DNA of 64,000 nucleotides, taken from Escherichia phage VEcB. The translations under genes were made by a program, and so were the position numbers. Numbering within the stretch: the first letter of the stretch is position 1; each line of letters opens with the position of its first letter. The notes under the pieces were generated by a model. It saw only the letters and a program-made list of their open reading frames with translations. It had not been told where the DNA came from and ran no database searches. The stretch is from sequence record NC_052663.1, one strand, 5' to 3'. Below, one piece after another: positions 8,560 through 29,360 of this stretch.

Positions 8560-8588
8560 AAGGAGCCAATAGGCTCCTTTTCTTTTAT
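8560..8588. terminator. Bidirectional terminator at the convergence of the + strand tail block and the - strand block
   Basis: GGAGCC-AATA-GGCTCC hairpin with T-tracts on both sides. Confidence 0.6.
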
Positions 8589-8589
8589 C

Positions 8590-9021
8590 TTAATCAGTGA
8601 AAATTACGCTCACATCTTCTTTAGAGAAGAGTTTATGATCTTCACCTTTTGTCTCAAGAGTTTCATACAGGTTAAGAAGTTCTGAAACATCTTTCTCTAC
8701 TAGTTTCTTCAATGTTGCAATTTTCTGTTTGCGATTTTTAATACGTTCAGCTACAACCTTACGTTGGTATCCGGCAGTACGATAACCTGAGAAAGTTACA
8801 CCAGTGAGACTTGCAGTTACAGGATCGTAATGACGTTCAATCTGAAATTTATTAAAAGGTACAGCGTCATCACGAATAATCTTACCGCCATTACTTACTT
8901 GACGAAGACCAGTAACTTGTTCTAGTCGTGCCATAGAAATCTTTGGAGACAGACCAGAGTCCAGGTTCATACCGTTGTTAATCAGTGCTTTCAGGGTGAT
9001 TTTGCTGTTCAGTGTACTCAT
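8590..9021 (-). CDS. Hypothetical protein
   Basis: ORF track; GGAGGAA RBS 7 nt upstream of ATG; start overlaps the end of the methyltransferase gene. Confidence 0.35.
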   Translation of the reverse strand: MSTLNSKITLKALINNGMNLDSGLSPKISMARLEQVTGLRQVSNGGKIIRDDAVPFNKFQIERHYDPVTASLTGVTFSGYRTAGYQRKVVAERIKNRKQKIATLKKLVEKDVSELLNLYETLETKGEDHKLFSKEDVSVIFTD

Positions 9022-9709
9022 TTAGTCGTTCCTCCGCTTGCTTAAAAATATTTACATCGGCTTCACAGCCTAAGTATTCTCTACCTGTTAAAAGTGCCGC
9101 AACTTGTGTTGTTGCACTCCCAGAGAAGAAGTCTAAGACTACATCTCCTTCGTTGGTGTGTATATTAATAAGGTCACAAAACAAAGTCAAGTGTTTTTGT
9201 GTTGGATGAAAACGATCTGCTCCTTGATAGATAGGATACTCAAACACACCCTTATGGTAGGAAGCATTGAAGGTTGGCTTCGAACCTTTAACACAAACAA
9301 TAGCCATCTCTTTAGCGTTACTAAGATAGTTAACACCACTGTTGATGGGTACAGGGTTTGTTTTAATCCATTCGATAGTACGGAACATACGAAAACCAAG
9401 CGGTTCAAGGATTTCACGTAGCTCCTGGATCTTCCAGATATCATACCAAACTATGCAAGTACCACCTTTTCTAAGCACCCTGTAGGCTTCTTTGAATACT
9501 TCTTTAAAGTAAGGAATATCTACAACATCCCAATCACCAAAGTTGTAAGATACACGGAATCTATCCGTATCTTTTCCAGTAGGCTCTCCAGATTGAAAAT
9601 TTGTGTCACGAGAAATAGCATATGGTGGGTCAGTAAGAATCAAATCTACACTATTGCTTTCGAGGGTTTGCAGGTAGTTTAATGCGGTGTTGTTTACAAA
9701 TTCGCTCAT
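8978..9709 (-). CDS. DNA methyltransferase, beta-class (N6-adenine or N4-cytosine)
   Basis: N-terminal DPPY motif (LILTDPPYAISRD) and C-terminal AdoMet motif (VLDFFSGSATT): the circularly permuted order typical of beta-class amino-MTases. Confidence 0.7.
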   Translation of the reverse strand: MSEFVNNTALNYLQTLESNSVDLILTDPPYAISRDTNFQSGEPTGKDTDRFRVSYNFGDWDVVDIPYFKEVFKEAYRVLRKGGTCIVWYDIWKIQELREILEPLGFRMFRTIEWIKTNPVPINSGVNYLSNAKEMAIVCVKGSKPTFNASYHKGVFEYPIYQGADRFHPTQKHLTLFCDLINIHTNEGDVVLDFFSGSATTQVAALLTGREYLGCEADVNIFKQAEERLNEYTEQQNHPESTD

Positions 9710-9717
9710 TATATCTC

Positions 9718-9746
9718 CTTCAAAGAAAAGGAGCCGTTAGGCTCCT
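9718..9746 (-). terminator. Terminator downstream of the SSB-like gene
   Basis: GGAGCC-GTTA-GGCTCC hairpin followed on the minus strand by TTTTCTTT. Confidence 0.5.
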
Positions 9747-9769
9747 TATATTCACACAATATTTAACTA

Positions 9770-10717
9770 TTAGAAACAGTGCAGGAAGTTTCGACCATAC
9801 TGCAAACCAATAGGAGCAAATGGGATATCATCATCGAAATCTTGAACAACAGGTTCTGGTTCTTTCGGTGCTGGCTCTTTCTTCTCTACTTTTTTAGTTT
9901 CTTTCTTAACTTCTTGTACTGGGGTAGACATTCCACGGATAGCAGCAGCTACTTTATCAGACAAAGCAAGAACTTCACGAGCAGCTTCAATAATCTCTTC
10001 TGCCGTTACAGTTTTACCTGTATGATCACGACAAGCGTTAAGAATTGCGTGTCCAACTGAAGCACCAAGATCATAGTCAGTCACATCAACGCCACGATCT
10101 TTAGCAATTTCTGCTTTCAGAGTAACAGTTGCAGATTGTACCACACCAGCCAAGTCGAAAGCATCACCTTTCACACCAGCACGTAGAAGCTCCAGAGCGC
10201 CATTTACAGCGTGTCCTGTTTCAATCCCTACAGTATCACGTTTTTTGTAGTTAGGTTTGCTACCTTCGTTATTAGATGGCTTATTTCCACCTTTTGAAGA
10301 AGATTGTGCTTGCTGAACACCTTCTGTTGAAAGAACAGTGATTTTACCTTTAGAGGAGTTGTAGTATGTTTTGCCATTCCATTCGGAAGGTTTAACATCC
10401 ATAGTTACTTCTACACCTTTTTCGATAGTAATCCACTTATCACCATCTTTAACTTGCAGGTTTTCATGTTCTGGGTGCAGTTTAACTTCACCTAGGCTAA
10501 CCCAAACACCTTTATCATCAGCACCAGCACCTTTCTCTTTAATAAGCAGAGATGCTTTGTGAGTTGATTCAATTTTCTTATCTGGCTGACCTGCAACCTT
10601 AATATAAGAGACTTTCATTTCATCAAACTTATCCAGTTTGACATATTCAACGATACCTTCAGCCCAGAATGCTTCTTTTTTAGTACGACGGTCGATTTCA
10701 GAATTAATTACTGGCAT
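9770..10717 (-). CDS. Putative ssDNA-binding / recombination-associated protein carrying an SSB C-terminal-tip-like motif (DFDDDIPF)
   Basis: GAGGAG RBS; C-terminal region PVVQDFDDDIPF matches the E. coli SSB acidic tip but is followed by 14 more residues. Confidence 0.45.
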   Translation of the reverse strand: MPVINSEIDRRTKKEAFWAEGIVEYVKLDKFDEMKVSYIKVAGQPDKKIESTHKASLLIKEKGAGADDKGVWVSLGEVKLHPEHENLQVKDGDKWITIEKGVEVTMDVKPSEWNGKTYYNSSKGKITVLSTEGVQQAQSSSKGGNKPSNNEGSKPNYKKRDTVGIETGHAVNGALELLRAGVKGDAFDLAGVVQSATVTLKAEIAKDRGVDVTDYDLGASVGHAILNACRDHTGKTVTAEEIIEAAREVLALSDKVAAAIRGMSTPVQEVKKETKKVEKKEPAPKEPEPVVQDFDDDIPFAPIGLQYGRNFLHCF

Positions 10718-10733
10718 AAATTCTCCTCTATAA

Positions 10734-11132
10734 TTACATTACTTTAACACAAAACTCTCGTAAAAGAGTAGCGTCAGTTTCTTCCAACAGGTATTTACCA
10801 AGACCAATACCAAATCCTATTTCACCACTTTCGAAATGGAGGATTTGTATCTTTTCTCCACCAAGGTTAATTACTTTTGCTTTTCCAGGATTATCCAAAA
10901 CATCTCGTATTGTATCCTGTAGTAACATAAGTTCACGTTTTGTGATAGTGGTTTCAGATATCTCTTTGTTTTCTACTCTCACTGTTAAACGATTGTATCC
11001 ACCAAAGAGACATAGTATTTGAATAAAAAAGGTATTATCTTGAGGTTCAACATCTTTTTTAGTTAGCTCAAGACGATTAGTTTCTCTACTATAGAACGTC
11101 TCGACTAAGATTTTAGAACGATTATCTGTCAT
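10734..11132 (-). CDS. Hypothetical protein
   Basis: ORF track; GAGGA RBS. Confidence 0.35.
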   Translation of the reverse strand: MTDNRSKILVETFYSRETNRLELTKKDVEPQDNTFFIQILCLFGGYNRLTVRVENKEISETTITKRELMLLQDTIRDVLDNPGKAKVINLGGEKIQILHFESGEIGFGIGLGKYLLEETDATLLREFCVKVM

Positions 11133-11175
11133 TCAAGTCCTCATAATAACACATAATTATAATGTTTGTCAACAC

Positions 11176-11769
11176 TTAAATTTTAAATTCTTCGTTGTTA
11201 AATGAATCCAGTGTACGTACTTCTGGTTCTTTGGGAATGAAAACGTCTTTTACAAAGCGGAACATAGGGAAACGTTCTGCCATTTTACGGACGTGTGCTT
11301 CTTTACCTGTGTATCGGTGATTAATAGTACAAATATTAGTTTTCAGTGCAAATTCAAAATCTGGATGATATACATAATTTTGACCATCCCAGTAACACAA
11401 GCAAATAGCTACATCAAAGTTCCATACGATTTCACTGCGTACACCTTCTTCCATGATCATAAAGTTAAACTTAAGATCTTTATAGTATGCTTCAAATACC
11501 CATTTCAAATGTGGTAGTTCGGCATAAGTGTGTTCTGTTTGCTTAGTAATTTGTTTAACATTACGTGCACCAACACCCAACATCAAAAATTTCTCTACTA
11601 ATACAAGTGTATTGTGGTTAGGCATACGCAAGTAAATGTCAATATCTTGCGCAGGTTTCTCTAATCGCCAGTCACGTACAGCGCCGCCAGCTACAATTGC
11701 AAACGGATCTACCAGTTGGCACATACGTAATACTTCTAAAGCTCGTACTTTTTGATCTTCAATATTCAT
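11176..11769 (-). CDS. Putative nucleotidyltransferase (Pol-beta superfamily, CCA-adding/poly(A) polymerase head-domain-like)
   Basis: Motif VAGGAVRDWRLEKPAQDIDIYL (GGxVRD ... DxD); start moved to internal ATG (11769) with AGGAG RBS instead of the GTG at 11790. Confidence 0.4.
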   Translation of the reverse strand: MNIEDQKVRALEVLRMCQLVDPFAIVAGGAVRDWRLEKPAQDIDIYLRMPNHNTLVLVEKFLMLGVGARNVKQITKQTEHTYAELPHLKWVFEAYYKDLKFNFMIMEEGVRSEIVWNFDVAICLCYWDGQNYVYHPDFEFALKTNICTINHRYTGKEAHVRKMAERFPMFRFVKDVFIPKEPEVRTLDSFNNEEFKI

Positions 11770-15477: not shown

Positions 15478-17250
15478 TTAATAAGAACCATCAGGAATAT
15501 TCTCTGGGTTACTTGTGTATTGATCGTAATCGTGAAGTGTAGCTGTTTTAATCTCATAGAAGAAACTACCTGCTGCACCAGTCTCTGAGAACTCACGGTT
15601 CTTTAGAATGTAGCAATATGTGCGGTTACGTTCCATAGGATCTTCAGCTTGTTTATCACGCTCCAGCGCAATTGTGATACCAGCACCTTTAGCAAGGAAG
15701 CTACTACCCATTGCATCATCTTCTACAATATGTTCATTACTATTGTTAGAAGACTTTTTAACGTGTGAAATTACAACAATGGTTATTGCATACTCTTTCA
15801 TAATGCGTTTCAGCCACGTCGCAAGTTCCTCTTGTTGTGACACGTCCATACCAGAAAGCAAGTCAGAATAAGGGTCGATAACAAGAATGGTTACTCCGAA
15901 ATAAATAATCATTTCCAGAACCTTCTCTTTAATCACATCTACGTTAGCTCCACGATCATCACAAACATAGAAACGTGGTGTTCCATCTTCTCGTTCGTAA
16001 AAATCACGAATCTTTTCTTCATTATCTTTTAAAATCTTTTCCTTCTCTTCTTTCGTTTTACGGTGAAGAGGGATATGCAAGAATGAAGACAGTAAGTTAC
16101 GAGAATACTTCTTATACGTTGCCTCCAAAGATAAAATACCAAGAGTATGTTCTGGGTGTGCAAGAATAATGTGTTTCGTAATCTCGTTAACCAACAGTGT
16201 CTTACCGATACTTGTTTTTGCAAGTATAACAGTAATTTCTTCTTCTACCAAGCCTCCACCTAACATATTCGAAGCAACACGCATGAATGGAGGAAGGGTG
16301 ATCATTTTAGCTTCCAGGCATTCCAAGGCTGCTTCATATAGTACGTTAGAAGCGTAAACACCAGCAGGTGTGTACAGTTTAGCTTTGAAAAAGCGATCAA
16401 TAAAATGATCAATTTTTCCTTCTACTAGTGCCTGGTTAGGATCTTTAACATCCGTTAGTTCCATCACGTAAACTTTATTACGTGGTAAGATTTTAACACA
16501 TTTCTCAACTGCTGCACGTCCAGCTTCATCATTATCCATACATAGAACAATCTTTTTAAATTGATCTAAGAATTTATAACGATGTTGAAGCTGCTTATGC
16601 AGAGATGTTTCGCCACAAGTACCAGATACTACAGCAGGAACAGGATATTTACCACCCTTGTTATAATCTTTTAGCATCTGTGTTGCAGCCAGCATATCGT
16701 GTTCACCACCAACGATTAGAATAGTACCGCTGTGGTTACGATATTTAAACTCCCCAAAAAGATCACAATCCTTTCCTGTTTCACCGATAGGATGTGAGAA
16801 ATCTTTTGGATCGATACGTTGTTTATACCCAGCAATATTGTAATCTTTAGTTGTAGGGTATAGTGTTGAAATTACTTCGCCAGTAGCTTCATCGTACATA
16901 TAACGTACACCGAAAGGCTTAGAGATATCTTCACGAATACCGCGATAACCTTTTGGATTAGTTCCAGTGCTGGCTTTTAGTTTATCATGTACTTCTGGAT
17001 TAAACTCACTACCCAAGATATCCTCCTCTTCAATTTCTTCGCCGTGTGCATTTAACCATTTTTGATCAGGGATAGTAAAGCCACAAGAAAAACAATGTGC
17101 GCCTCGATGGTCTTCATCGGCATCTAAGCCATATACCATCAAATTGTTTTGTGATCGATCACGCCCTCCTTTCATACAACGAGGACACCCAGTATGTCCT
17201 TCTTGACTTAGATCAATGTTATACCCATATTTATTTACAACATAAGACAC
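15478..17250 (-). CDS. Bifunctional DNA primase-helicase (T7 gp4-like: zinc ribbon, TOPRIM primase, DnaB-like helicase)
   Basis: GTG start with AGGAG RBS; zinc ribbon CPRC...CFSCGF; TOPRIM-like IVLCMDNDEAGRAA; Walker A AKTSIGKT and Walker B-like VLVIDPYSDL. Confidence 0.75.
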   Translation of the reverse strand: MSYVVNKYGYNIDLSQEGHTGCPRCMKGGRDRSQNNLMVYGLDADEDHRGAHCFSCGFTIPDQKWLNAHGEEIEEEDILGSEFNPEVHDKLKASTGTNPKGYRGIREDISKPFGVRYMYDEATGEVISTLYPTTKDYNIAGYKQRIDPKDFSHPIGETGKDCDLFGEFKYRNHSGTILIVGGEHDMLAATQMLKDYNKGGKYPVPAVVSGTCGETSLHKQLQHRYKFLDQFKKIVLCMDNDEAGRAAVEKCVKILPRNKVYVMELTDVKDPNQALVEGKIDHFIDRFFKAKLYTPAGVYASNVLYEAALECLEAKMITLPPFMRVASNMLGGGLVEEEITVILAKTSIGKTLLVNEITKHIILAHPEHTLGILSLEATYKKYSRNLLSSFLHIPLHRKTKEEKEKILKDNEEKIRDFYEREDGTPRFYVCDDRGANVDVIKEKVLEMIIYFGVTILVIDPYSDLLSGMDVSQQEELATWLKRIMKEYAITIVVISHVKKSSNNSNEHIVEDDAMGSSFLAKGAGITIALERDKQAEDPMERNRTYCYILKNREFSETGAAGSFFYEIKTATLHDYDQYTSNPENIPDGSY

Positions 17251-17262
17251 AGGATTCTCCTA

Positions 17263-17532
17263 CTAAAATGATTCGTTTGTCTCCATAATATATTGCATTT
17301 CCAAATCTTCCATATGTTTCTTAAATTGGTAAACAATTTCCGATGGGGAAATATCTATATCAAAAAGGTCTTTTGTACCAGAATAAAACCTAATACCATC
17401 AACAATAAGACCACCATAATAATCCCAATCACTTTCTCGTGAGAAAGGGTTAGGTTCTTCATAATAGTAATCTACTTCAACAATAATAGGTTCTTTATTA
17501 TCTTGTTTATACTCAAAATCAAAAGTGTGCAT
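17263..17532 (-). CDS. Hypothetical protein
   Basis: ORF track; tightly packed between primase and glycosyltransferase-like gene. Confidence 0.35.
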   Translation of the reverse strand: MHTFDFEYKQDNKEPIIVEVDYYYEEPNPFSRESDWDYYGGLIVDGIRFYSGTKDLFDIDISPSEIVYQFKKHMEDLEMQYIMETNESF

Positions 17533-18476
17533 TATAAATCCTCGATAAGCAGTCTGCGGGTTTCATTTAAATCATCAATATTGTAGTTATCTCTTACATA
17601 CTTAGCAAGAGCCAATCCTTTCTCAATACAAACATCAGGGGATTCGATTAAGTATTCTACAATATCTTTCCACTCTTTAACTGAATCAGCAAAGAAGATT
17701 AGATCTTTAAATTCTTCAGTATAATAGTTCTCTCGTGGCGAACAAACGAGTGGCAAACCTTTAGCACCAGCTTCAAGAATTTTTAAATTACTTTTGGCAT
17801 TATTAAAATGATTATTTACTAATGGAGCTATGGAGATTTGATGACCATCGTATGCTTCCATATAACACTCATAAGGACGAATACCTTCATAAACACAATC
17901 TGGTTGAATATTTTCTTTAATTTGCAACCATTGAGCACTACTTAACTCTTCGTGATCTCTACGAAATCCACATAAAGTTAAATCTTTACCAAAATCAGGA
18001 AGAATTGCTAAATCATGTTTATGTGTTTCACTTCCCGCCCAAACCAGTGGACTTTTAGAATAACGATCTTTAGTAAGAACAAACTGTCCTTCATCAAAAG
18101 GTAGTCCGTTAGGCACAATATGTACATTATCATTGTATTGGCTTAATTCAACCTTTAATGCCGGAGTTGTTGTAGTTACAAGATCACTTCTTTCAAGGAA
18201 CCATTTTAGGTCATCTCGGATTTGATTTTCAAATAATCCTTCAAGCATATGCCCTTCAGGAATAATTAAAGAATCATCCAGATCCATTACCAATTTAAAC
18301 CCAAGTTGTTTAAGAGCCAGGAAACCTGGCTTTCCACGTGTTGGTACTCCATTGAACACAAAAATATTATGCTTAGGATTAATGGTCAGTTTGCGTTTAT
18401 ATGGCAAAATGATTCTATGAAAATCACATACACTATACTTTTCATTTCCGCGTGTGTCAAGAATAATATTAGGCAT
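17532..18476 (-). CDS. Glycosyltransferase-like protein, paralog 1 (GT-B-like)
   Basis: Clear paralogy with 18488..19462 (shared DLDD ... QF(V/T)LTKDRYS ... (I/V)WAG ... SIAPLV(N/D)N.FNN.KSNLKILEAGAKGLP); layout loosely recalls T4 beta-glucosyltransferase. Confidence 0.4.
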   Translation of the reverse strand: MPNIILDTRGNEKYSVCDFHRIILPYKRKLTINPKHNIFVFNGVPTRGKPGFLALKQLGFKLVMDLDDSLIIPEGHMLEGLFENQIRDDLKWFLERSDLVTTTTPALKVELSQYNDNVHIVPNGLPFDEGQFVLTKDRYSKSPLVWAGSETHKHDLAILPDFGKDLTLCGFRRDHEELSSAQWLQIKENIQPDCVYEGIRPYECYMEAYDGHQISIAPLVNNHFNNAKSNLKILEAGAKGLPLVCSPRENYYTEEFKDLIFFADSVKEWKDIVEYLIESPDVCIEKGLALAKYVRDNYNIDDLNETRRLLIEDL

Positions 18477-18487
18477 ATAGCTCCTTA

Positions 18488-19462
18488 TTAAAGACTTTCA
18501 ATAACTTGACGACGCAGTTCATTAGCATCTGCAAGATTATAATTAAGACGAACGTGTTCTGCAAGCATCATACCACGATCTTCTGTGTATCTAGGGTTCC
18601 TCATTAGCTTGACAACTTCATAATGCCAAGATGCTTTAGAGTCTGCATAGATAACAGCCTTTGCATCTACCGGATTGAAGTACGGCAGCACAGGAGAACA
18701 GATAATAGGAAGACCCTTTGCACCTGCTTCCAAAATCTTCAAATTGCTTTTACAGTTGTTGAAGTCATTATCTACCAGAGGAGCAATTGCAATACTGTGA
18801 CCGTCATACACAGACATATACTCACCTAAATTTTTAATAGCTGGTTTATACTGTGCATTTGGAATTTTACGTTTTACTTTAACCCACTCCGCAGTAGTTA
18901 GATACTGACTATTATTTCCAACAGGTGCAGAAGGATACACTTCATACCCTGCAATTGTCAATAGCGTATCATCAAATGTATTAGCTACAAGAGATAAATC
19001 AGGTTCATGGCTTGCTCCTCCCGCCCAAATAATAGGCGTGTCAGAATAACGGTCTTTTGTCAAAGTAAATTGACCTTCGTCGTAAGGTAGTGCGTTTCTA
19101 ATAACGACAACATTACGATTTAAATGACGAATTTTGTAAGCTAGGTATTCTGTTGTTACAGTAACCACATCTGCTAACTTAATCATCTCTACAATAGTCT
19201 TTGAGTGATTAGTAAATACGCCAGCCATATAATGTTCAGGATTAAGCGAATAAAAATCATCTAAATCAACAATAATCTTAACACCTTGTGCCTTCAGGCG
19301 TTTAACTTCGTCTGATCCACGAGAATACACTCTATTAAAAACTAAAACGTCTTTCTTAGGTTTAAACGTATTTCCAGCAAATGGCATTACAATACGATGG
19401 TAATCACAACCACTGCCTAACTTATTATCACACTTAAGTACAGGAGTATTAGGATTTACCAT
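18488..19462 (-). CDS. Glycosyltransferase-like protein, paralog 2
   Basis: Paralog of 17532..18476; start moved to internal ATG (MVNPNTP) with GAGGAGG RBS, matching the paralog N-terminus. Confidence 0.4.
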   Translation of the reverse strand: MVNPNTPVLKCDNKLGSGCDYHRIVMPFAGNTFKPKKDVLVFNRVYSRGSDEVKRLKAQGVKIIVDLDDFYSLNPEHYMAGVFTNHSKTIVEMIKLADVVTVTTEYLAYKIRHLNRNVVVIRNALPYDEGQFTLTKDRYSDTPIIWAGGASHEPDLSLVANTFDDTLLTIAGYEVYPSAPVGNNSQYLTTAEWVKVKRKIPNAQYKPAIKNLGEYMSVYDGHSIAIAPLVDNDFNNCKSNLKILEAGAKGLPIICSPVLPYFNPVDAKAVIYADSKASWHYEVVKLMRNPRYTEDRGMMLAEHVRLNYNLADANELRRQVIESL

Positions 19463-20135
19463 ATTTTTGAGCCTCCTCATAAGAGATAAAAGTTTTACCA
19501 TTGCGAAGATCCTCCAGGGATTGTTTATATTGTTCCCAGTTTACACCAATCCCCTGTTCTTTCTCTTCTTTTGACAGATTCGCAAAAGGTAAAGGATTGT
19601 CTCCAAATACATCATCAGGATGGATAAACGCCATAATTCGAATAGGACATGGTACGCCTTGAATACCTCGGTTCAAACCTGCCAGTGGGACGCGATGAAT
19701 CCACTCTGCATCTTCATACCCATAGCCGTGGGTGTATGAGCGGAAATAGCCAGCTTTCTCAATAACTGCACGGGAATACATACCAAACTGGCACATTCCT
19801 AGCTCCCAAATAACCACTTCCCCTTCAATACCTTTTACTTTATCTTTAAAGTATTCAGGCATACCAAAGAAATCCCAACCATTTTCCTTCGCCTGTTTTA
19901 CAAAATATGTTTCCCAACCTTGAACAACAGGATAGCAATCATCATCAAAAATAAACCAGTAATCATATCCTTCATCATAAAACTTTTTCATCAGTTCATT
20001 ACGAGCATATGCAACACCTTTTCGTTCCCGATCATACTGTACAACAAAAGTAGCACTAGGATCAGTCACAAGATAATCTTTAAGAGGACGCTTACCTACA
20101 GTAATAACACCAACACCAATTTTTGTATTTTCCAA
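19449..20135 (-). CDS. Putative GT-A-fold glycosyltransferase (DxD-type)
   Basis: TTG start with AAGGAG RBS; YWFIFDDDCYP (DxD-like acidic motif) after an N-terminal nucleotide-binding-like region. Confidence 0.4.
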   Translation of the reverse strand: MENTKIGVGVITVGKRPLKDYLVTDPSATFVVQYDRERKGVAYARNELMKKFYDEGYDYWFIFDDDCYPVVQGWETYFVKQAKENGWDFFGMPEYFKDKVKGIEGEVVIWELGMCQFGMYSRAVIEKAGYFRSYTHGYGYEDAEWIHRVPLAGLNRGIQGVPCPIRIMAFIHPDDVFGDNPLPFANLSKEEKEQGIGVNWEQYKQSLEDLRNGKTFISYEEAQKYGKS

Positions 20136-20144
20136 AATAACTCC

Positions 20145-20708
20145 TTAAATAATTTTATTCATGTCTTGACAATGTAAAAGGTGTGAAACAGCTTTTCTAG
20201 GATCATCATTACCTAAACGGTATGTGTGAAATAAATATAACCCACGTAGTAAACCTAGCCTTTTATTGTTAGCGTGCAATGCTTTAGAGAAAATTATATC
20301 AAACTGTATTGATCTTTCCTCAAAAGGAATTTCATTCCACAGACTCTTACGAAAGAGAAGAAAGAATCCTGCTAAGATAGCATCTGTAGGTACTTCCTCT
20401 ATTGAGTTTCCCCATTCTAGATGTGCTCTTTTTGCAATCTCAATGTGGTGTAATATATTCGGATCTTCACTTCTTTCATTATTAAATAATTGATATGTTG
20501 ATCCCAATCTGTTACAAGATGCACCAAGAACATCAAAATCAGGATTTGAACGGACAATTGATTCCAGCCAAGCAGGTTGTTCTGGAAGAAGAAACATTGT
20601 ATCAATGTCTCTTAGGCAAATCCAACTATCTTCTGGTAAGACACTTATTGTGTCATTGATACCTTTTCCAATATCTCCAGAAAGATAGGGAGTTATGTGA
20701 AATATCAT
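20145..20708 (-). CDS. Hypothetical protein, possibly nucleotide-sugar transferase-like
   Basis: GGAGGGAG RBS; ICLRDIDTMF acidic motif; clustered with glycosyltransferase-like genes. Confidence 0.3.
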   Translation of the reverse strand: MIFHITPYLSGDIGKGINDTISVLPEDSWICLRDIDTMFLLPEQPAWLESIVRSNPDFDVLGASCNRLGSTYQLFNNERSEDPNILHHIEIAKRAHLEWGNSIEEVPTDAILAGFFLLFRKSLWNEIPFEERSIQFDIIFSKALHANNKRLGLLRGLYLFHTYRLGNDDPRKAVSHLLHCQDMNKII

Positions 20709-20765
20709 ACTCCCTCCGTATTATTACTTTAGCATTTTTAGACTAAAAAGTCCAAATGGTTTTAC

Positions 20766-20960
20766 CTATTGATTACGTTTTGCGAGTTCCATTTGGATAG
20801 CTAAACTGTGATCTCGTGCTTCCATATACTCTTTATATGTTTCATTAAGATGATCACGACAAACATCACGCAGTTTAATCAGCTTATCTGTAGGGATACC
20901 ACTAAGATCATCCCAAGATTTTACAACTTCACCAGTATCATTGATCCCAATGGTTTTCAT
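20766..20960 (-). CDS. Hypothetical small protein
   Basis: ORF track. Confidence 0.3.
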   Translation of the reverse strand: MKTIGINDTGEVVKSWDDLSGIPTDKLIKLRDVCRDHLNETYKEYMEARDHSLAIQMELAKRNQ

Positions 20961-21216
20961 CTACAACCTCCTTAATTGCTACAGCACAGTTTTTGCAGAT
21001 ACACTGCCCTTTACCTTTAGAAATCTGGATGTAAGGTTCATTTTCATTTTCGCCCTTACGTGAGTCATATATTACAGAATTGAAGCACACAACGCAAATA
21101 TTTTTTAAGATTGTATACTTATCAACTTTCTTTTTTGTTTTAAAGTTAACCTCAATAACATCAGCCATCAGTGTAACACTCCCAGTATGTTGTTTTGTGA
21201 CATAACCATAGAACAT
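20938..21216 (-). CDS. Hypothetical small Zn-ribbon protein (true start probably an internal Met)
   Basis: CVVC ... CICKNC cysteine pairs. Confidence 0.3.
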   Translation of the reverse strand: MFYGYVTKQHTGSVTLMADVIEVNFKTKKKVDKYTILKNICVVCFNSVIYDSRKGENENEPYIQISKGKGQCICKNCAVAIKEVVDENHWDQ

Positions 21217-21456: not shown

Positions 21457-21966
21457 TTAGCGATAGAATTGATGTTCTTTGTAGCGGTACACTAGAACCA
21501 TATCTTTTTCCCAGTGTGCTCTTATTGTAGATTTTTTAAAGTATAATGCTCCTTTTGTAATATCTAATGCAATTCGTAATTCTGGAAAATGCGTATCGAG
21601 ATAAAGCAGACGTTCTGCTATAGCCTTAGCTTCCTTCCACTTATCACGTTCCATAACGTTGAATGTCTTTGTGTAAGAGAATTGTCCTTTTTGAAACAAA
21701 ACTTCTTTTATAGTATCAGGGAAATATGAATCTCTAGCCCTATTTAATACTACATTACCAACAGCAGACATACCGCGCTTTCCTTGATTACGACTTTCTG
21801 CATAGATTGCACAAGCTAATAGATTTTCTTTACTATCACGCTTTGTACACTTGTGAACTACTTTAGCAGTTTTTACGTTTGCAGCTTCGGCTTGCGCCAC
21901 GACAGGTGTAAATGTAAAAGCAGTTAAGGATAGTAACGCAATTGCGACAAAGGTTTTTATTGACAA
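21457..21966 (-). CDS. Secreted cell-wall hydrolase, SleB/CwlJ-like (candidate endolysin or lysis accessory)
   Basis: N-terminal signal peptide (AIALLSLTAFTFTPVVAQAEA); motif AIYAESRNQGKRGMSAVGNVVLNRARDSYFPDTIKEVLFQKGQFS resembles the Hydrolase_2 family. Confidence 0.5.
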   Translation of the reverse strand: MSIKTFVAIALLSLTAFTFTPVVAQAEAANVKTAKVVHKCTKRDSKENLLACAIYAESRNQGKRGMSAVGNVVLNRARDSYFPDTIKEVLFQKGQFSYTKTFNVMERDKWKEAKAIAERLLYLDTHFPELRIALDITKGALYFKKSTIRAHWEKDMVLVYRYKEHQFYR

Positions 21967-22713: not shown

Positions 22714-23310
22714 TTACTCGAACCAATCGTCGCCAGCGCCAAACGCTTTAACTACATCATAAATGTCAAGTCCAGCTTTACCTACACCATATGCTTTCAG
22801 TTTCCATTCGCTATCTTCCCGTACCAGGGAGGCAACGTGGCAAATGGTATTACCTGCAAGTTCTGGAGCCAAGAAGTCAAAATCCAGCAGTTCAACGTTA
22901 CGTTCATCATCGAAGATTTTAAGGAAACCTTCGGTAGCGTGACCAAGGCGTTTCTTACCCGTTTCGTCATCAATAGTGATTACGAATGCAATTTCCTGTG
23001 CTTCAGCAGAGATATTACCCAGTGTAACATCAATCTGCTCCATCTGTCCTACACCATCACGAACATCTTCACCTGCAAAAGTAGAACGTTCAGGATCAAA
23101 TTTCTGTGCGTAGCATACCAGGTGGCGAGGAGACAACAGTTCCGGCAGACCAGATGCATTGTGTCGGCAAATCAGAGCACTAACATCCAGATCCAGTTTT
23201 TCGTTAGATTTCCAAGAGAATTCCAGACGAATGCGTTTCAGTGCTGGTGCAATCTTTTTCAGAGAAACTTTTTCGCTAGAACCTTTTTTCAGGGAAATTT
23301 TCTGAGTCAT
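22714..23310 (-). CDS. TerD-family protein
   Basis: Colinear similarity to E. coli TerD: KISLKKGSSEKVSLKK (cf. VSLSKGGNVSLSK), DLDVSALIC (cf. DLDASAFLL), EIAFVITIDD (cf. KIIFVVTIHD), SEWKLKAYGVGKAGL (cf. GEWKFRAVGQGYAGG). Confidence 0.8.
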   Translation of the reverse strand: MTQKISLKKGSSEKVSLKKIAPALKRIRLEFSWKSNEKLDLDVSALICRHNASGLPELLSPRHLVCYAQKFDPERSTFAGEDVRDGVGQMEQIDVTLGNISAEAQEIAFVITIDDETGKKRLGHATEGFLKIFDDERNVELLDFDFLAPELAGNTICHVASLVREDSEWKLKAYGVGKAGLDIYDVVKAFGAGDDWFE

Positions 23311-23382
23311 AATTTATTATCTCCTTTGTTGTTAATTTACGTTATCTATTTTACTAATCTTTTCTACAAAGTCAAGCGTTTT

Positions 23383-24177
23383 TTACGCTTTTGCTCCGAA
23401 TTTTTTAACCCACTCGCCAAACTCTTCGGATAGCAGTTTATCGTAAAGTTCTTCGTCAGACAAGGACAAATCTGCAATACCGATAAAGTCAACGTTATCG
23501 TATTCTTTTGCCAAGTCTTTCAGGAATTTAAAGTTTGCATTACCTACACCAACCATAAACCAGTAAACAGGAGTGTTGCGGTGTTTGTTCAGCAAACTAC
23601 GTACTGCTGAAGTATCCATGTTCTCCCCGTCAGTTTGGAAGAAAATCATTGCAGGAGTACGATCAACTTGTGCATCAGTATCTACAACCTGTTCTACAAC
23701 AGTACGTGTAACTTCTACAAGTTCTTTTTTACCAGTCAGTTTAGCAAGGAAACCCTTAGCCGGAACTTCTTCATACTCAACGACTTCGCGTGTAATATTT
23801 TTCATAGGTACACTACCGAAGTATGTATCATAGATCTCTTGCATTACTGGAGCATAAGCTGTACCACCATTGATGCAAATGTTAGACATGCAAGAGCCGA
23901 CATAATCATCATATACATCAGCCGTTGCAGGAGGCAGTTCAAAAGAAGAACTATTGAAAGCCCACATGTCAATCTGTGCATTATCATCAAACTTCATACC
24001 AAACGGCAGCAGTTTACCTACAAAATCACTAACAGTGCCATCACGATATAGCTCACACATACTACCCGAAATATCTAAGGCGCTACCGACACGAAGAACA
24101 ACATCGTTAATCTTTTTCTTACGCAGAGATACAGTAAGAGTTTCTTGACGTTTTTTAAGACTGATTTTATTGGACAT
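23383..24177 (-). CDS. von Willebrand factor A domain protein (TerY/TerF-like) with short TerD-like N-terminal motif
   Basis: MIDAS motif DISGSM; N-terminus KISLKK...VSLRKK; adjacent to TerD. Confidence 0.6.
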   Translation of the reverse strand: MSNKISLKKRQETLTVSLRKKKINDVVLRVGSALDISGSMCELYRDGTVSDFVGKLLPFGMKFDDNAQIDMWAFNSSSFELPPATADVYDDYVGSCMSNICINGGTAYAPVMQEIYDTYFGSVPMKNITREVVEYEEVPAKGFLAKLTGKKELVEVTRTVVEQVVDTDAQVDRTPAMIFFQTDGENMDTSAVRSLLNKHRNTPVYWFMVGVGNANFKFLKDLAKEYDNVDFIGIADLSLSDEELYDKLLSEEFGEWVKKFGAKA

Positions 24178-24178
24178 A

Positions 24179-24448
24179 TTATTTCTCCTTTCTGACTGTA
24201 ATGTTAGTAACTTCTAAATCCACTTCTACCACTTCTGTATCATATAAAATACAGTTAAGTTGACCTCTTTGTGAACCGTTCAGACACATTGCTTGGTTTG
24301 TATTAACCTTAATAAACACTAAGTTTCTGAACGTATCTAAACCAGCATCTTGATAGGCAACATAATATACAAATGTATCACCTGCGTCAAGTTCTCCAAA
24401 ACATTTAGGTTCATCTGATTCGTCGTCTTTGATATTAAATTTAAGCAC
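24179..24448 (-). CDS. Hypothetical small protein
   Basis: ORF track. Confidence 0.3.
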   Translation of the reverse strand: MLKFNIKDDESDEPKCFGELDAGDTFVYYVAYQDAGLDTFRNLVFIKVNTNQAMCLNGSQRGQLNCILYDTEVVEVDLEVTNITVRKEK

Positions 24449-25004
24449 TATCTTCTCCTTTACCTACTTTCAAGCCTAAATAGAAAGCCTCTCTAGTGAT
24501 TTTTTGCAACTCGTTTAAAGAGATAGTTACAACTAAATCATCTTCAATTTCTAGCTTTGAGTCTTCTTCTGTCTCAATGCAAGTATTATGCACTTTGTGG
24601 TAAGGATTGTCAACACGTTTAAATTTATTATTTTCAGTGCTGAAGAAGCAATCTGGATCTTCCTCCCCATCACCCCAACCCTGGTTAGGATCTTCTTCAG
24701 ATCTTTCTGTTGGGATCTCGCCTGTAAAGTGCTCTTCTAATACCAGAGCAATCCCATCTCCAAGATCGGAAGAGAACATCAAATTACAAACTTCTTCCCA
24801 AGGCATAGACCACTTAAATCTTTTACGATTGCCATGTTTATCTTCTTCGTTAGAGAAAACACTACCATAACTATCATAATTCCCATACATCTCTTCGACA
24901 ACCTTACCACCTTTCAAAAGAAATAGGTAGCAAGGAGAGCCATCGAAAGAGGTAGAAAGAGCAGCATTACCAGACTCTTTGCACAAGAAACTAAAACACC
25001 CCAT
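24441..25004 (-). CDS. Hypothetical acidic protein
   Basis: ORF track. Confidence 0.35.
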   Translation of the reverse strand: MGCFSFLCKESGNAALSTSFDGSPCYLFLLKGGKVVEEMYGNYDSYGSVFSNEEDKHGNRKRFKWSMPWEEVCNLMFSSDLGDGIALVLEEHFTGEIPTERSEEDPNQGWGDGEEDPDCFFSTENNKFKRVDNPYHKVHNTCIETEEDSKLEIEDDLVVTISLNELQKITREAFYLGLKVGKGEDSA

Positions 25005-25204
25005 TATACACCAGCCTTAAGATCAATTAAAGCCAAAGTTGTTTCAGAGTGTGTTTGCTCGTCTACAGGTGCAGTCATATGATAATACAAAAAATCTTCA
25101 GCATCATACCAATCTGATTCTTGACCTTGTTTCCAACCATCAATGAAAGCATCTTCCATAATGGTTTGCAATTCTTCACGAGTTAAGTGAATATCTTTAC
25201 TCAT
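25004..25204 (-). CDS. Hypothetical small protein
   Basis: ORF track. Confidence 0.3.
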   Translation of the reverse strand: MSKDIHLTREELQTIMEDAFIDGWKQGQESDWYDAEDFLYYHMTAPVDEQTHSETTLALIDLKAGV

Positions 25205-25437
25205 TACACATTCTCCTCTTTTACCAATTCCATCGTTGAATTGTCAAAACCATCTTTAGAAGAATAGGTATAGACAGAACGTAGTTCTCGCAGGACAGTG
25301 AATACATTAGGATCATCTAACCAAGCATCCTGGAGGAGAACATAACGATCTTCATTGTCATACTGAACAGCAATCATAGAACCAGACAGTTTGTAAATTT
25401 TAATATTCATAATATATTTCTCCTTAAAGTAGACCAC
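25204..25437 (-). CDS. Hypothetical small protein
   Basis: ORF track. Confidence 0.3.
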   Translation of the reverse strand: MVYFKEKYIMNIKIYKLSGSMIAVQYDNEDRYVLLQDAWLDDPNVFTVLRELRSVYTYSSKDGFDNSTMELVKEENV

Positions 25438-26527
25438 GTTTAACAGTTTGAATCATACCATCTTCAAGAGATTGCACTTCTTGAATGTAATCAATACGAG
25501 CAGCACGGGCTTCAGTGTTGATTCGGTTAGTTTCTTCCAACATTTTAACTAAGTTTTCTTGATCGCGACGTAATGTTTCAATATCCAATACTTGACGATT
25601 AGCAAGTTTTGTAGCTTCAATTTGGTTTTGTGCAGCCAGATCACTACCCATTGCAATAGCAGCATTAAATTCATTCAGTACATTGTTCTGTGTATCGGCT
25701 GCTTTCTTCTGGCGTAAACTTTCAATATACATAGAAAAGTTTGCAGAGTAAGCAGGAATAACATTATTCACAATATTACGGGCTGATCGCATCAAACTTG
25801 CAGATACTTTCTGCATACTTTGTACACGTGGCCCCATCTGAACACACAGTAAACGCAAGGCTTTCAGGTCTGCAATACGAATTTCAAGCAGATCCATAGT
25901 ATCACGAGTACGTTGACGCTCTTCTACTTCATTTTCAGGTAGTGTATTAAGGCGAACTTCTTCTTTTTCATAAGTAGCTGTTAGAAGCTCTATATCCCTG
26001 TTTAAGCTAAGAGCATATTTTGCAATAGCCTCCTCTAAACGTTGCAGATATCGTAAAGAATCTTCTTCTTTTTTCAAATCTGTTTGGAGTGTCTTTACCA
26101 AACCTTCAATACGGTTATTGATGGTGTCAAATTCTCCAAACAAATCTTCTTTCATACCTAAAACTTTCTTAACTAGTTTACCTAAACCTTTAGATTGTTT
26201 AATAGAGTTAGGATCAAGTTGCTTTGCTTGCTTAATAAGTGCAGTTAAACGTTCACTCATTTCATCTCCCTGAGATGAACGCTGGTGTTTAAGCACTTCA
26301 GCATTAAGGTTACGAAGAGTAAGTCCTGCATCAGCACCAACCTGTTCAATCTCTTCACGAGACATTGGAGGCAGCATTTGTACAGGGCGTGCAACAGCAG
26401 GGGCATATACAGGGCTTGCATCCATAGCACTTGGAGCAAACAAAGACTTACTTTTTTCTGTTGTTGCCGTGAATACACTCATTTCAGACGGTTTGCTTTT
26501 TACGGCACTGATAAAAGGACTGGACAT
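25424..26527 (-). CDS. TelA-like (toxic anion resistance family) protein, tentative
   Basis: 367 aa, predominantly alpha-helical/coiled-coil; size and position within a TerC/TerD/vWA cluster fit TelA; not verified by profile. Confidence 0.4.
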   Translation of the reverse strand: MSSPFISAVKSKPSEMSVFTATTEKSKSLFAPSAMDASPVYAPAVARPVQMLPPMSREEIEQVGADAGLTLRNLNAEVLKHQRSSQGDEMSERLTALIKQAKQLDPNSIKQSKGLGKLVKKVLGMKEDLFGEFDTINNRIEGLVKTLQTDLKKEEDSLRYLQRLEEAIAKYALSLNRDIELLTATYEKEEVRLNTLPENEVEERQRTRDTMDLLEIRIADLKALRLLCVQMGPRVQSMQKVSASLMRSARNIVNNVIPAYSANFSMYIESLRQKKAADTQNNVLNEFNAAIAMGSDLAAQNQIEATKLANRQVLDIETLRRDQENLVKMLEETNRINTEARAARIDYIQEVQSLEDGMIQTVKRGLL

Positions 26528-26595
26528 TCAATTTCCTCCATATTCTTTAGTAAATGGTGATACCTCTGTACCACCATAATAACACAAGTTAAGTA

Positions 26596-27447
26596 TTAAA
26601 CAAACATATCTAAATAATTTGTAGTAATAAATGCTCCATCTGCTTCCAGATTAACATAACCCGTGGTATTAGCAGTTAAGAAATCTAGATCGAAGGACTC
26701 TTTAACACCCCGTACCTCAACACGAGAGATATCGAATACAGGTAGTGTAACAGCCTCTTCGTGCAATACCGTACCTTTGTAGGTTGCCTTAATGATAAAC
26801 TTGATATTACCTGTTCCAGCATCATATAAAACACTTTCAAACCCTTTGAGAGTATATTTATCACCAGAAGTGAAGTGCAAAGTTGCTTTGTTTACAGTAC
26901 GTTTCTTACGAGGAGTTCCTTTCACACGTTTATGATCACTACGTTTTTTGTATTTAGGAATGAATACAAACGATACACTCTCAAGAAAGGTATCAACATC
27001 AAGGATTTTAATATCCTCTGTTGCAGCAAATTTTGAAGTCGTTGCATCAAAATGCTTTTCCCTGCGATCATACATAAAGATATCAAACCGATCTTCTAAA
27101 TCAAACAAATTATGTATTTTAATTTCAGAATGCTTGCGCATTGCAGCAACCTTGAACTCTTCAAAACGTGGGTGTTCTACAAGTTCTTCAAGTTTTACAC
27201 CAAAGACAGTATATGGCTTCGAAGTCTTTTCTGGTGTTGGCATTACAGAAGCATAGTCCCCGATTGCGCTCTTAAAGCAAAATTGTTCTTGACCTGTATT
27301 TTTACCAACGAATTTACAGTATTCATCATCGTGCATACTTTCCTTGGTAGTACCAACAAACTCAAAACCATCTTTATTCTTCTCAAGGATTTCTTGATTA
27401 AAGATCCAACCTTCCAGGCGATATACTTTACCAACTTCTAGTTTCAT
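26596..27447 (-). CDS. Hypothetical protein within the Ter-like cluster
   Basis: ORF track; GAAGGAG RBS. Confidence 0.4.
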   Translation of the reverse strand: MKLEVGKVYRLEGWIFNQEILEKNKDGFEFVGTTKESMHDDEYCKFVGKNTGQEQFCFKSAIGDYASVMPTPEKTSKPYTVFGVKLEELVEHPRFEEFKVAAMRKHSEIKIHNLFDLEDRFDIFMYDRREKHFDATTSKFAATEDIKILDVDTFLESVSFVFIPKYKKRSDHKRVKGTPRKKRTVNKATLHFTSGDKYTLKGFESVLYDAGTGNIKFIIKATYKGTVLHEEAVTLPVFDISRVEVRGVKESFDLDFLTANTTGYVNLEADGAFITTNYLDMFV

Positions 27448-27482
27448 CTGTTTCTCCTTCTTATTTAATCTGTATTAAATTA

Positions 27483-28073
27483 TTAACGACGACGTGAGCT
27501 ACTAAAACTACGTTTCGACGAAGAATAACTTTTCGAAGACTTACTATAAGAACTAATAGGGCTTGAGTAAGACTTACGAGCAGAGTAATCACTATTCACT
27601 TTTGTTGTTGACGGGCGTGAATACGTTTGTACACTTTGCTGCTTAATTGTGTTTTGTTTAGTGGTTGTATATGTATTTCCTTGTTTATCATAAAAACTAT
27701 GCTTTTGTGTTGTATATGCTTTACTGTTAGTTGTAGGAGCAGCGTTGTTATTAATAATTGTTGTGCTGCTACCACCATCTCTATAACCGCCACCGCCACT
27801 ATTACCACTCAACATATGACCAAGAAGCATACCTGTAGCAAACTCACCTACACCAGAAGAACCACTGCCGCCTCCTTGCACAACAACTGTTGAAGGTTGT
27901 GCAGGTGCTGCTTGAACAACTTGAGGTGCAGGCTGATTTACATATTGTTCATCTACCATCTGATTTGGTGTTTGTTGGTAACGTTGATTTTGTACATTTT
28001 CAGAATCATCACAACCTACCAGCAATGCACTACCTAATACAACTGCAACAATAAAAGATTTAATGTTTTTCAT
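27483..28073 (-). CDS. Predicted lipoprotein with low-complexity Q/S/Y/G-rich body and basic Ser-rich tail
   Basis: Signal peptide plus lipobox (LLVGC); GGGSGSSG and SYSKSSKSYSSSKRSFSSSRRR tracts; start taken at internal Met MKNIKSF. Confidence 0.45.
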   Translation of the reverse strand: MKNIKSFIVAVVLGSALLVGCDDSENVQNQRYQQTPNQMVDEQYVNQPAPQVVQAAPAQPSTVVVQGGGSGSSGVGEFATGMLLGHMLSGNSGGGGYRDGGSSTTIINNNAAPTTNSKAYTTQKHSFYDKQGNTYTTTKQNTIKQQSVQTYSRPSTTKVNSDYSARKSYSSPISSYSKSSKSYSSSKRSFSSSRRR

Positions 28074-28269
28074 TTGTAACCCTCTCATTTAAAGTCTCAA
28101 CACAATTTTTAAAATCCCTAGAGAAACAATACATCTGTTCTCCGTTCCTGTTGATAGTAATTGTATGGTTATCAATATATGTTGTCAAGATAAAAATCAA
28201 ACAAAACAACCCTAGAGCAAAACAAATATTTTCAAACAGAATCCAAAGAACACGTAAAACCACCATCAG

Positions 28270-28300
28270 ATCACCTCAACAAAGCCCCCGAAGGGGCTTA
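28270..28300 (-). terminator. Terminator downstream of the TerC gene
   Basis: AGCCCC-CGAA-GGGGCT hairpin followed on the minus strand by TTTGTT. Confidence 0.5.
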
Positions 28301-28317
28301 ATGAATTAAGCAACAGT

Positions 28318-29283
28318 CTAGTCTTCTTTTTCAGGGAAGATTAAACTTGCAATAACACCCAGCCCAAGAGTACCTAACACAATATACATACTGATCGTCG
28401 GATCAATGTGTGCTGGCAGGAAACTCACTTTTGCGTGCAGAGTTTCTGCAAACGGGTGATACATCAGTTTTACACCCACAAATACCAGGACTACGATAAC
28501 TGCTTTCTCCAGATGAACCAAATACTTCAGTGCAACACTAAGAACAAAGAACAGAGCACGTAAACCTAAGATTGCACAGAGCATCGAAGAGAACACCAGC
28601 AGAGGTTCTTGTGTCACCGCAATTACCGCTGGAACAGAGTCTACTGCAAAGATTACGTCAACCATTTCCATTACAAACACACAAACCAGAGCCGGAGTTG
28701 CTACACGAACACCATTTTTGATTGTGAAGAACTTCTCACCATCCATCTGATCAGATACAGGGAACAGCTTACGAACAATGCGAGTAGCCCAGTGTTTAGA
28801 GTAATCAACTTCTGCATCATTATCCCCAGCGAATACCATTTTAGCCGCACAGAAAAGGATGACAGCACCGAAGAAGATATTAACATACCAGCCCAAACTC
28901 AACAAGTAAGTGCCTACTGCTACAAACACACCTCGGAAGACAATCGCACCTGCAATACCCCAAAGTAGAATTTTGTGCTGCAAGTGTGTGCTTTTAATAC
29001 CAAAACTTGCGAAGACTGCCACAAATACTACTAAGTTATCTACAGAAAGAGATTTCTCCAACACATACCCACTCAAGAACAAGCTCGCAAAATCAGCACC
29101 GTGTTGGAAGTATACAAAACCATAGTAGGCTAATGATACCCCAATCCAGAAAATTGACCAGCCAATTGCAGATTTAAATGAAATTTCTTTGTTTTCTCTG
29201 TGTCCAAAGAAGTCAATACAAATCGACAAGACTAAAATACCCACTAAAACAACCACATCAATAATTGGGAAACCCAGTTGCAT
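28318..29283 (-). CDS. TerC-family integral membrane protein
   Basis: Multiple TM helices; signature YVLEKSLSVDNLVVFV and second repeat DVIFAVDSVPAVIAV typical of TerC/Alx. Confidence 0.75.
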   Translation of the reverse strand: MQLGFPIIDVVVLVGILVLSICIDFFGHRENKEISFKSAIGWSIFWIGVSLAYYGFVYFQHGADFASLFLSGYVLEKSLSVDNLVVFVAVFASFGIKSTHLQHKILLWGIAGAIVFRGVFVAVGTYLLSLGWYVNIFFGAVILFCAAKMVFAGDNDAEVDYSKHWATRIVRKLFPVSDQMDGEKFFTIKNGVRVATPALVCVFVMEMVDVIFAVDSVPAVIAVTQEPLLVFSSMLCAILGLRALFFVLSVALKYLVHLEKAVIVVLVFVGVKLMYHPFAETLHAKVSFLPAHIDPTISMYIVLGTLGLGVIASLIFPEKED

Positions 29284-29360
29284 TCTTTTCTCCTCTTTAA
29301 TGCGGAGGACAATCCTCCGCTCTATGTCTTATACTATAAACTGTTTTTAAAGAAAGTCAA

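Follow-up and report, generated by a model that had tools for sequence, protein, structure and literature searches.

Four consecutive glycosyltransferase (GT) genes of an Escherichia phage from the phi92-like group probably act on an acceptor other than DNA, and rhamnose is more likely than not the sugar that they transfer. The genes, called A to D throughout, occupy positions 17532-20708 of the window, i.e., the whole analyzed stretch of 64,000 nucleotides (nt) from Escherichia phage VEcB (sequence record NC_052663.1). Our favoured explanation, which we put forward tentatively, is that the cluster encodes a rhamnose-using assembly line that builds a glycan on a non-DNA acceptor, most likely on virion proteins. 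The cluster is real and conserved, and earlier papers have both suggested and questioned a role in DNA glycosylation; the interest now lies in the acceptor in a therapeutically used group of phages. The genes and the small open reading frame (ORF) that follows them are, in the order of transcription:

20145-20708, minus strand: gene D, 187 amino acids (aa), a soluble minimal GT-A enzyme (GT2-like), first gene of the cluster
19449-20135, minus strand: gene C, 228 aa, a soluble GT-A enzyme with FDDD and YG(Y/F)ED motifs
18488-19501, minus strand: gene B, 337 aa (324 aa from the start at 19462), a GT-B enzyme, GT4-like, paralog of A
17532-18476, minus strand: gene A, 314 aa, a GT-B enzyme, GT4-like
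17263-17532, minus strand: small acidic ORF, 89 aa, isoelectric point (pI) 4.1, match to PHROG 4240 (E = 3.9e-34), a possible accessory gene

The four ORFs were found exactly where an earlier inspection of the letters (the sequence-only reading) had placed glycosyltransferase-like genes, and all four matched PHROG families labelled glycosyltransferase, with E values from 1e-79 to 1e-149, well outside what chance would produce. A and B matched phrog_7162 (E = 1e-145 and 4e-149, the latter being 3.7e-149 for B), C matched phrog_2456 (E = 3.5e-79), and D matched phrog_14179 (E = 5.5e-113), whereas none of the NCBIfam models matched A-D. The adjacency to replication genes that had been described was also confirmed. 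Transcription proceeds from D via C, B, A, and the 89-aa ORF to the primase-helicase and DNA polymerase A genes, and the cluster thus lies directly upstream, with the 89-aa ORF between A and the primase-helicase gene. The start of this ORF overlaps the stop codon of A (ATGA), and ORFs of 83-92 aa were found at the same place in five relatives (L007, L015, L017, L018, and L019). The genes A-D are separated by 9-11 nt or overlap, and each is preceded by a Shine-Dalgarno motif. C starts with TTG downstream of an AAGGAG ribosome-binding site and has a conserved N-terminus; in the case of B, both candidate starts have a Shine-Dalgarno motif, and the GenBank record uses that at 19462. A scan for the consensus pattern revealed no terminator-like hairpin between 22689 and 15067, which weakly suggests, from this pattern, that A-D and the replication genes may share one transcription unit. 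The results of a promoter scan of the region were at chance level. The Kyte-Doolittle average over 19 residues did not exceed 1.21 in any of the four proteins, indicating that they lack transmembrane segments and are soluble. A, C, and D are acidic (pI of D 5.6).

Positions 17000-21000 are 100% identical to Escherichia phage vB_EcoM_ESCO9 (OM386654.1), which belongs to Justusliebigvirus within Stephanstirmvirinae, the phi92-like phages. For whole-genome checks, the ESCO9 genome was assembled from parts of its record and the window. With one exception, all 55 matching phage records were 95-100% identical to this region, the remaining one being 90-95% identical; they include phi92, muut, alia, Paula, and the BASEL phages Bas60-62. 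The cluster itself is 98.5-98.6% identical to the window in Bas60/Bas61 and 98.6% identical in Paula. It is already annotated and discussed in the literature: several of the matching GenBank records label all four genes glycosyltransferase, and the BASEL records call A and B 'putative disaccharide synthase'. A report of experiments on the function of A-D was not found in the searchable literature. Three GenBank records, MG065645.1, MG065639.1, and MG065650.1, are filed as 'Campylobacter phage A145, A150, B15', and their genes are 99-100% identical (77% for B15) to those of E. coli Justusliebigvirus/Phapecoctavirus. Either a mislabelled host or contaminated preparations might account for this.

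A and B are 41% identical over their full length (BLASTP E = 5e-83), and thus the tandem paralog pair seen by the sequence-only reading is well founded. Its assignment to GT-B-like enzymes also held, as two Rossmann-like domains with an interdomain cleft are present in the A/B group. The similarity of A to Glyco_trans_1_2 exceeded the Pfam cut-off (26.8 bits, cut-off 25), and B remained below the cut-offs (Glyco_trans_1_2 14.7 bits, Glyco_trans_1_4 18.1 bits). B has retained 15 of the 15 residues that are invariant in the 39 family members, and both paralogs therefore look, as judged from their sequences, catalytically competent. K228, S229, K232, and E235 are invariant in the 39 sequences including both paralogs; the first glutamate of the E-x7-E motif is not among the invariant residues. 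Searches of PDB sequences with the single proteins and with family profiles yielded weak GT4 matches for A and nothing useful for C or D. The likeness to the T4 beta-glucosyltransferase (BGT) noted earlier applied to the fold and did not extend to the sequence: none of the proteins A-D had sequence similarity to T4 BGT or the alpha-glucosyltransferase (AGT), and membership in these families was rejected. The closest bacterial homolog of A (35% identical, 411 aa) is encoded on a contig of Burkholderia dolosa (L006:3025-8440), where it directly follows an intimin/invasin-like adhesin gene and the gene for an uncharacterised protein of 571 aa. This context hints at protein glycosylation in that bacterium, and as a single, uninformative case it was dropped as a functional clue for A.

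For C, the prediction of a DxD-type GT-A enzyme was borne out by an AlphaFold model with a GT-A fold (predicted local distance difference test, pLDDT, 89.5), for which Foldseek retrieved STIV A197, COLGALT1, WrtF, and TarP from the PDB. The invariant residues of C are F61, F63-D64-D65-D66, and Y138-G139-x-E141-D142. C was also compared with the TET-associated glycosyltransferases (TAGT, PF20691), and membership was rejected: the score of 22.1 bits (E = 1.6e-4) is under the cut-off of 27.5, the match covers just the DxD region (residues 26-79, 54 residues), and a TET/JBP partner was not detected in the part of the proteome that was scanned. The evidence for the GT-A fold and the DxD motif comes from the model for C and from the sequence for D. 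D, which had been proposed to be a further nucleotide-sugar transferase, has D34-x-D36 (the DxD motif) and H161 invariant in 27 homologs. D itself had no match in Pfam; the D domain of the relative P0137 reached 42.9 bits on Glyco_tranf_2_3 (cut-off 27), and other members match GT2 families, so that this prediction is supported as well. The D family comprises 1203 cluster representatives with frequent fusions to TOD1/MUCI70, GT2, or Methyltransf_24 domains. A comparison of the D family with the C family using hhalign did not reveal a significant relationship.

The assignment of rhamnose as the sugar transferred by A-D, which we regard as more likely than not, is based on a complete pathway for deoxythymidine diphosphate (dTDP)-L-rhamnose encoded in the same genome. 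RmlB, RmlA, RmlC, and RmlD are encoded at 8470-11731 of the ESCO9 record, outside the window and about 67 kb from the cluster. In ESCO9, RmlB (442 bits, cut-off 365) and RmlA (471 bits, cut-off 361) are above the NCBIfam equivalog cut-offs, which RmlC and RmlD exceed in the relative Eryne. A-like genes were found in 140 phage records and RmlC in 166, with nearly equal counts per genus. Klebsiella phage KP13-26 has kept RmlC, and its cluster is reduced to D and one GT-B gene. In more distant relatives (L007, L019, and Streptomyces phage Zuko), a gene for a nucleoside diphosphate (NDP)-hexose 4,6-dehydratase lies inside or beside the cluster. The dTDP-L-rhamnose pathway had been noted by Olsen et al., who speculated about rhamnosylation of hydroxymethylated nucleotides (PMC7552041). 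In Eryne (L005:3717-5027), a deletion appears to have fused RmlB to just the last 130 residues of RmlA, whereas the two genes of ESCO9 are separate and full-length, and ESCO37 has been reported to have neither RmlB nor RmlA. The Eryne fusion and the loss in ESCO37 suggest that the first two steps of the pathway are dispensable and are presumably supplied by the host.

Three independent lines of evidence oppose DNA as the acceptor, at least for bulk modification: the restriction phenotype, the response to bacteriophage exclusion (BREX) and to BrxU, and the missing base-activating enzyme. Together they make it probable that A-D do not act on DNA. The data on restriction and BREX stem from close relatives of ESCO9 (Bas60, Bas61, and phiPau). 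In the raw data of the BASEL study, Bas60 and Bas61 formed zero plaques on hosts with EcoRI, EcoRV, or EcoP1, and on the EcoKI host the efficiency of plating of Bas61 was 0.11, with the same pattern for Bas60 (PMC8594841). The authors remarked on the exceptional susceptibility of these phages to restriction-modification 'despite a putative dTDP glycosylation machinery' (PMC8594841). The Durham phage phiPau, which is probably the GenBank phage Paula, was reduced by about seven logs by BREX, a system that acts on unmodified DNA. It was not among the phages sensitive to BrxU, which cleaves DNA with 5-methylcytosine (5mC), 5-hydroxymethylcytosine (5hmC), or glucosyl-5hmC, and the DNAs of BrxU-insensitive phages were reported to be uncleaved by BrxU in vitro.

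The known systems for glycosylated pyrimidines all start from an enzyme of the thymidylate synthase family that is encoded beside the transferases (PMC13326640). A profile built from two seeds, T4 gp42 and E. coli ThyA, detected no member of the ThyA/gp42 family among ORFs of 50 aa or more in a six-frame translation of the complete ESCO9 genome (best E about 1-2, 3 bits), while the positive controls reached about 1e-140. Likewise, no gene of the ThyA/gp42 type was found within 10 kb of homologous transferases in 11 other loci. The annotated 'thymidylate synthase' turned out to be a divergent ThyX-like protein. TET/JBP proteins were not detected in the annotations of Eryne and ESCO9 and in Pfam scans of about 30 further proteins, a check that covers part of the proteome and of the small ORFs. 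The idea of the sequence-only reading that phage DNA is modified with sugar as an anti-restriction measure is not supported, given the restriction of Bas60/Bas61, the BREX sensitivity of phiPau, and the results for both enzyme families. Whether a base-activating enzyme is present, and how the phage fares under restriction, can tell DNA glycosyltransferases apart from other transferases of phages; fold, paralogy, and the context of sugar genes cannot. For this purpose the structural neighbours of the proteins were discarded as an argument against DNA because DNA arabinosyl- and glucosyltransferases have the same neighbours (PMC13326640). The UDP-galactopyranose mutase (UDP, uridine diphosphate), methyltransferases, and aminotransferases of relatives were also dropped as evidence for a non-DNA glycan, because RL38J1 uses UDP-galactopyranose mutase for DNA glycosylation (PMC13326640).

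A more restricted form of DNA glycosylation was considered as a rival explanation. Rhamnose or other sugars might be added to minority bases or specific motifs after base activation without a ThyA homolog or TET, and the modification might serve to evade a particular defence rather than classical restriction. The general idea had been proposed earlier (PMC7552041), and the architecture of the cluster parallels those of RB69, DLP3, and RL38J1, which also combine GT4-like GT-B enzymes, tandem paralogs, and a sugar-nucleotide pathway. The position of b-gt beside gene 42 and the polymerase gene in T4, the weak TAGT match of C, and the presence of genes for a C5-cytosine methyltransferase and the divergent ThyX-like protein point in the same direction. 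However, phages with clusters that are 98.5-98.6% identical remain plaque-free on the EcoRI, EcoRV, and EcoP1 hosts, the effect of BREX on phiPau is large, this phage is absent from those sensitive to BrxU, and a ThyA-family ORF is missing both genome-wide and near the homologs in other loci. The partial check of the proteome did not detect TET/JBP, the TAGT match of C is confined to the DxD region and below threshold, sequence similarity to T4 BGT/AGT is lacking, and A, C, and D are acidic. On balance, we consider this explanation improbable. Still further down the scale is the specific version in which the cluster and the Rml enzymes put sugar on a subset of bases or motifs, again without ThyA homolog or TET, so that the DNA stays open to EcoRI, EcoRV, EcoP1, and BREX and evades another defence; it is very improbable, and if true, it would represent a new class of DNA modification.

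The favoured explanation, glycosylation of virion proteins, can be outlined as follows. A-D would be soluble cytoplasmic enzymes, produced together with the replication proteins from one early/middle transcription unit. The phage-encoded RmlB, RmlA, RmlC, and RmlD would supply dTDP-L-rhamnose, and the host would supply UDP-sugars. The four enzymes might then act in succession and build a short rhamnose-containing glycan on a non-DNA acceptor, which would be one or more virion proteins, with both assembly and glycosylation taking place in the cytoplasm. Viruses that decorate their virions with self-made rhamnose are known, and virus-encoded virion glycosylation occurs in mycobacteriophages (Che8, Corndog, Myrna), chlorovirus PBCV-1, and mimivirus. 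A flippase, a polymerase, or an initiating or membrane transferase was not found accompanying the cluster. The solubility of the enzymes, the absence of these three functions, the strictly lytic lifestyle of the phage, and the viral rhamnose precedent fit a direct glycosylation of phage proteins in the cytoplasm. In a phage of about 36 kb (L010), a C-like GT-A gene and an A-like GT-B gene are located immediately upstream of the terminase, portal, and capsid genes, and in Streptomyces phage Zuko a dehydratase gene and an A-like transferase gene lie upstream of the terminase gene. L008 has a D-like gene between the terminase and portal genes, together with genes for a GT2 enzyme, a deacetylase, two methyltransferases, and a galactopyranose mutase. 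The occurrence of transferase genes at the packaging and head genes of these unrelated phages weakly suggests a link to the virion. In L012 and L013, large clusters of transferase and sugar-tailoring genes are found near replication genes.

Several observations weigh against virion glycosylation. A position next to the terminase gene is also expected for enzymes that modify DNA just before packaging (PMC13326640). The enzymes of RB69, DLP3, and RL38J1 that are proven to glycosylate DNA share their top structural neighbours with the proteins of the cluster (BshA 3mbo, sucrose-phosphate synthase (SPS) 6kih, PimA 2gej, and 7qsg), and these systems include tandem paralogs and phage sugar-nucleotide genes (PMC13326640). 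In T4, b-gt and gene 42 adjoin gene 43, an arrangement that is mirrored by the location of the cluster beside the primase-helicase and polymerase genes. The Rml genes are 67 kb away from the cluster, and the link between the two is one of co-occurrence. No direct evidence of glycosylated virion proteins in the phi92-like group was found in the searchable literature, and a tblastn search with A (E <= 1e-5) revealed no similarity to mycobacteriophage genomes. With these points taken into account, a virion protein is a possible acceptor, more so than any other candidate considered here, and its probability remains well below one half.

The envelope of the host, which the sequence-only reading had named as the alternative to DNA, is an unlikely target, yet it is the next one to be considered. 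The enzymes would work at the cytoplasmic face of the inner membrane and add rhamnose or other sugars to nascent lipopolysaccharide (LPS) core or to undecaprenyl-linked intermediates of the enterobacterial common antigen (ECA) or the O-antigen. The outcome may be a masking of receptors, either for superinfection exclusion or to spare the progeny from adsorbing to debris, or a diversion of the dTDP-sugar flux. Enzymes of this kind are peripheral and have no transmembrane segments, just like A-D, and rhamnose is a typical sugar of O-antigens. However, the phage is strictly virulent, and new LPS would not be expected to replace that of the outer membrane within one latent period, so that masking would be inefficient. 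In addition, known seroconversion depends on membrane-embedded Gtr proteins or acetylases of temperate phages, no gene for which is present: A-D have no hydrophobic segment, neither they nor the neighbourhood genes encode membrane proteins of the GtrA/GtrB/GtrC type, and a Gtr-type system was therefore rejected. Homologs also occur in phages of the Gram-positive Streptomyces, which has a different envelope. Rated lower again, and rather unlikely, is a soluble or host-protein target. The product might be a free glycoside, i.e., a disaccharide or a glycosylated nucleoside-like metabolite from the Ter/phosphoribosyltransferase (PRTase)/HAD/macro module described below, or a cytoplasmic host protein might be glycosylated as a step of the takeover, for which the rhamnosylation of EF-P by EarP and the glucosylating toxins are analogues. 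Relatives share the order TerC-TelA-vWA/TerF-TerD-...-D-C-GT-B-primase, a PRTase_3 gene lies close by, and an early/middle operon would fit a takeover role. However, the order may simply be an inherited architecture, as the homologs in unrelated phages are not beside Ter genes; moreover, four transferases exceed the needs of a disaccharide, and no candidate for a host target is known.

Upstream of the cluster, a Ter-type module extends over 22714-32073. It contains the following genes:

22714-23310, minus strand: TerD
23383-24177, minus strand: vWA/TerF-like protein
25424-26527, minus strand: TelA
28318-29283, minus strand: TerC
29840-30673, minus strand: macro-domain protein
30549-31406, minus strand: ComF-like PRTase_3 protein
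31399-32073, minus strand: HAD hydrolase

In the Stephanstirmvirinae-like lineage, the gene order is TerC, TelA, vWA/TerF, TerD, cell-wall hydrolase, D, C, one or more GT-B genes, a small ORF, primase-helicase, and PolA, and in some relatives a dehydratase gene is inserted into the cluster. The order of the Ter-type module is also kept in the distant relatives L018 and L019. A functional link between the transferases and the Ter/PRTase module was considered and found no support outside this phage lineage. In Eryne, the labels 'HNH endonuclease' for TerD and the vWA protein and 'Zot-like toxin' for the PRTase seem to be mis-annotations. The gene between the Ter module and the cluster (21457-21966, minus strand), conserved at this place in relatives, encodes a Hydrolase_2 protein (SleB-like cell-wall hydrolase) with an apparent N-terminal secretion signal, as read from its hydrophobic N-terminus. 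It is labelled 'endolysin' in Eryne, which has another endolysin annotated elsewhere.

Three further loci of the window were noted. The nrdD gene of ESCO9 is split into an N-terminal half (35815-36711, minus strand; Pfam NRDD 1-263) and a C-terminal half (34112-35083, minus strand; 263-562), and an HNH/NUMOD endonuclease ORF (35206-35763) is located between the halves. In Eryne, nrdD is one gene of 1800 nt, and the split looks like an insertion of an intron or a homing endonuclease, as in T4 nrdD. At 51351-51902 (plus strand), a NADAR-domain gene (Pfam E = 5.8e-36) corresponds to NADAR(Bas60), for which experiments have demonstrated that it strips ADP-ribose from DNA and in this way counteracts the DarTG1 defence (PMC11257639). 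It is preceded by genes for an AAA/STAND-like ATPase (49159-50286, plus strand) and, just before it, for a protein with a CapR homology domain and a weak T5orf172 match (50361-51350, plus strand), which may be another counter-defence or regulatory pair.

The phi92-like phages and the phapecoctaviruses are among the coliphages with the broadest host ranges and form part of therapeutic cocktails. About 6 kb of their DNA is devoted to the four transferases and the complete pathway for rhamnose, yet this DNA behaves like unmodified DNA. If virion proteins are the target, this would be the first case of self-encoded virion glycosylation in a phage of enterobacteria, and it would have consequences for the stability of the particles, their recognition by antibodies, and their pharmacokinetics during phage therapy. 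Should the cluster instead act on the host envelope or on a metabolite, it would represent a new takeover function.

The cluster was also compared with the closest known systems. Like the systems for poly-glycosylation of 5-hydroxycytosine or 5hmC in the DNA of RB69, DLP3, RL38J1, and T4 (with its AGT/BGT), it has several transferases, tandem GT4-like GT-B paralogs among them, structural neighbours in common (BshA, sucrose-phosphate synthase, and PimA), a phage-encoded sugar-nucleotide pathway, and a location among genes of DNA metabolism. Unlike in these phages, no ThyA-family hydroxylase/hydroxymethylase was found in the whole ESCO9 genome, EcoRI, EcoRV, and EcoP1 fully restrict the DNA of near-identical relatives, and BREX blocks phiPau. 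The sugar pathway leads to dTDP-L-rhamnose, in contrast to UDP-arabinose or UDP-galactofuranose in the poly-glycosylation systems. The TET-associated glycosyltransferases have a GT-A core and the DxD region in common with C. Compared with the bacterial GT4 enzymes (PglA, WlaC, PimA, WaaG, BshA, MshA, and sucrose-phosphate synthase), which have 360-400 aa, A is more compact (314 aa) and only 9-16% identical, and the first glutamate of their canonical E-x7-E motif is not evident among the invariant residues of the A/B family. No sequence relationship to the transferases of mycobacteriophage-type virion glycosylation was detected. Che8, Corndog, Myrna, PBCV-1, and mimivirus differ also in their hosts; here, the host is a Gram-negative enterobacterium, and virion glycosylation would be a new feature for phages of such bacteria.

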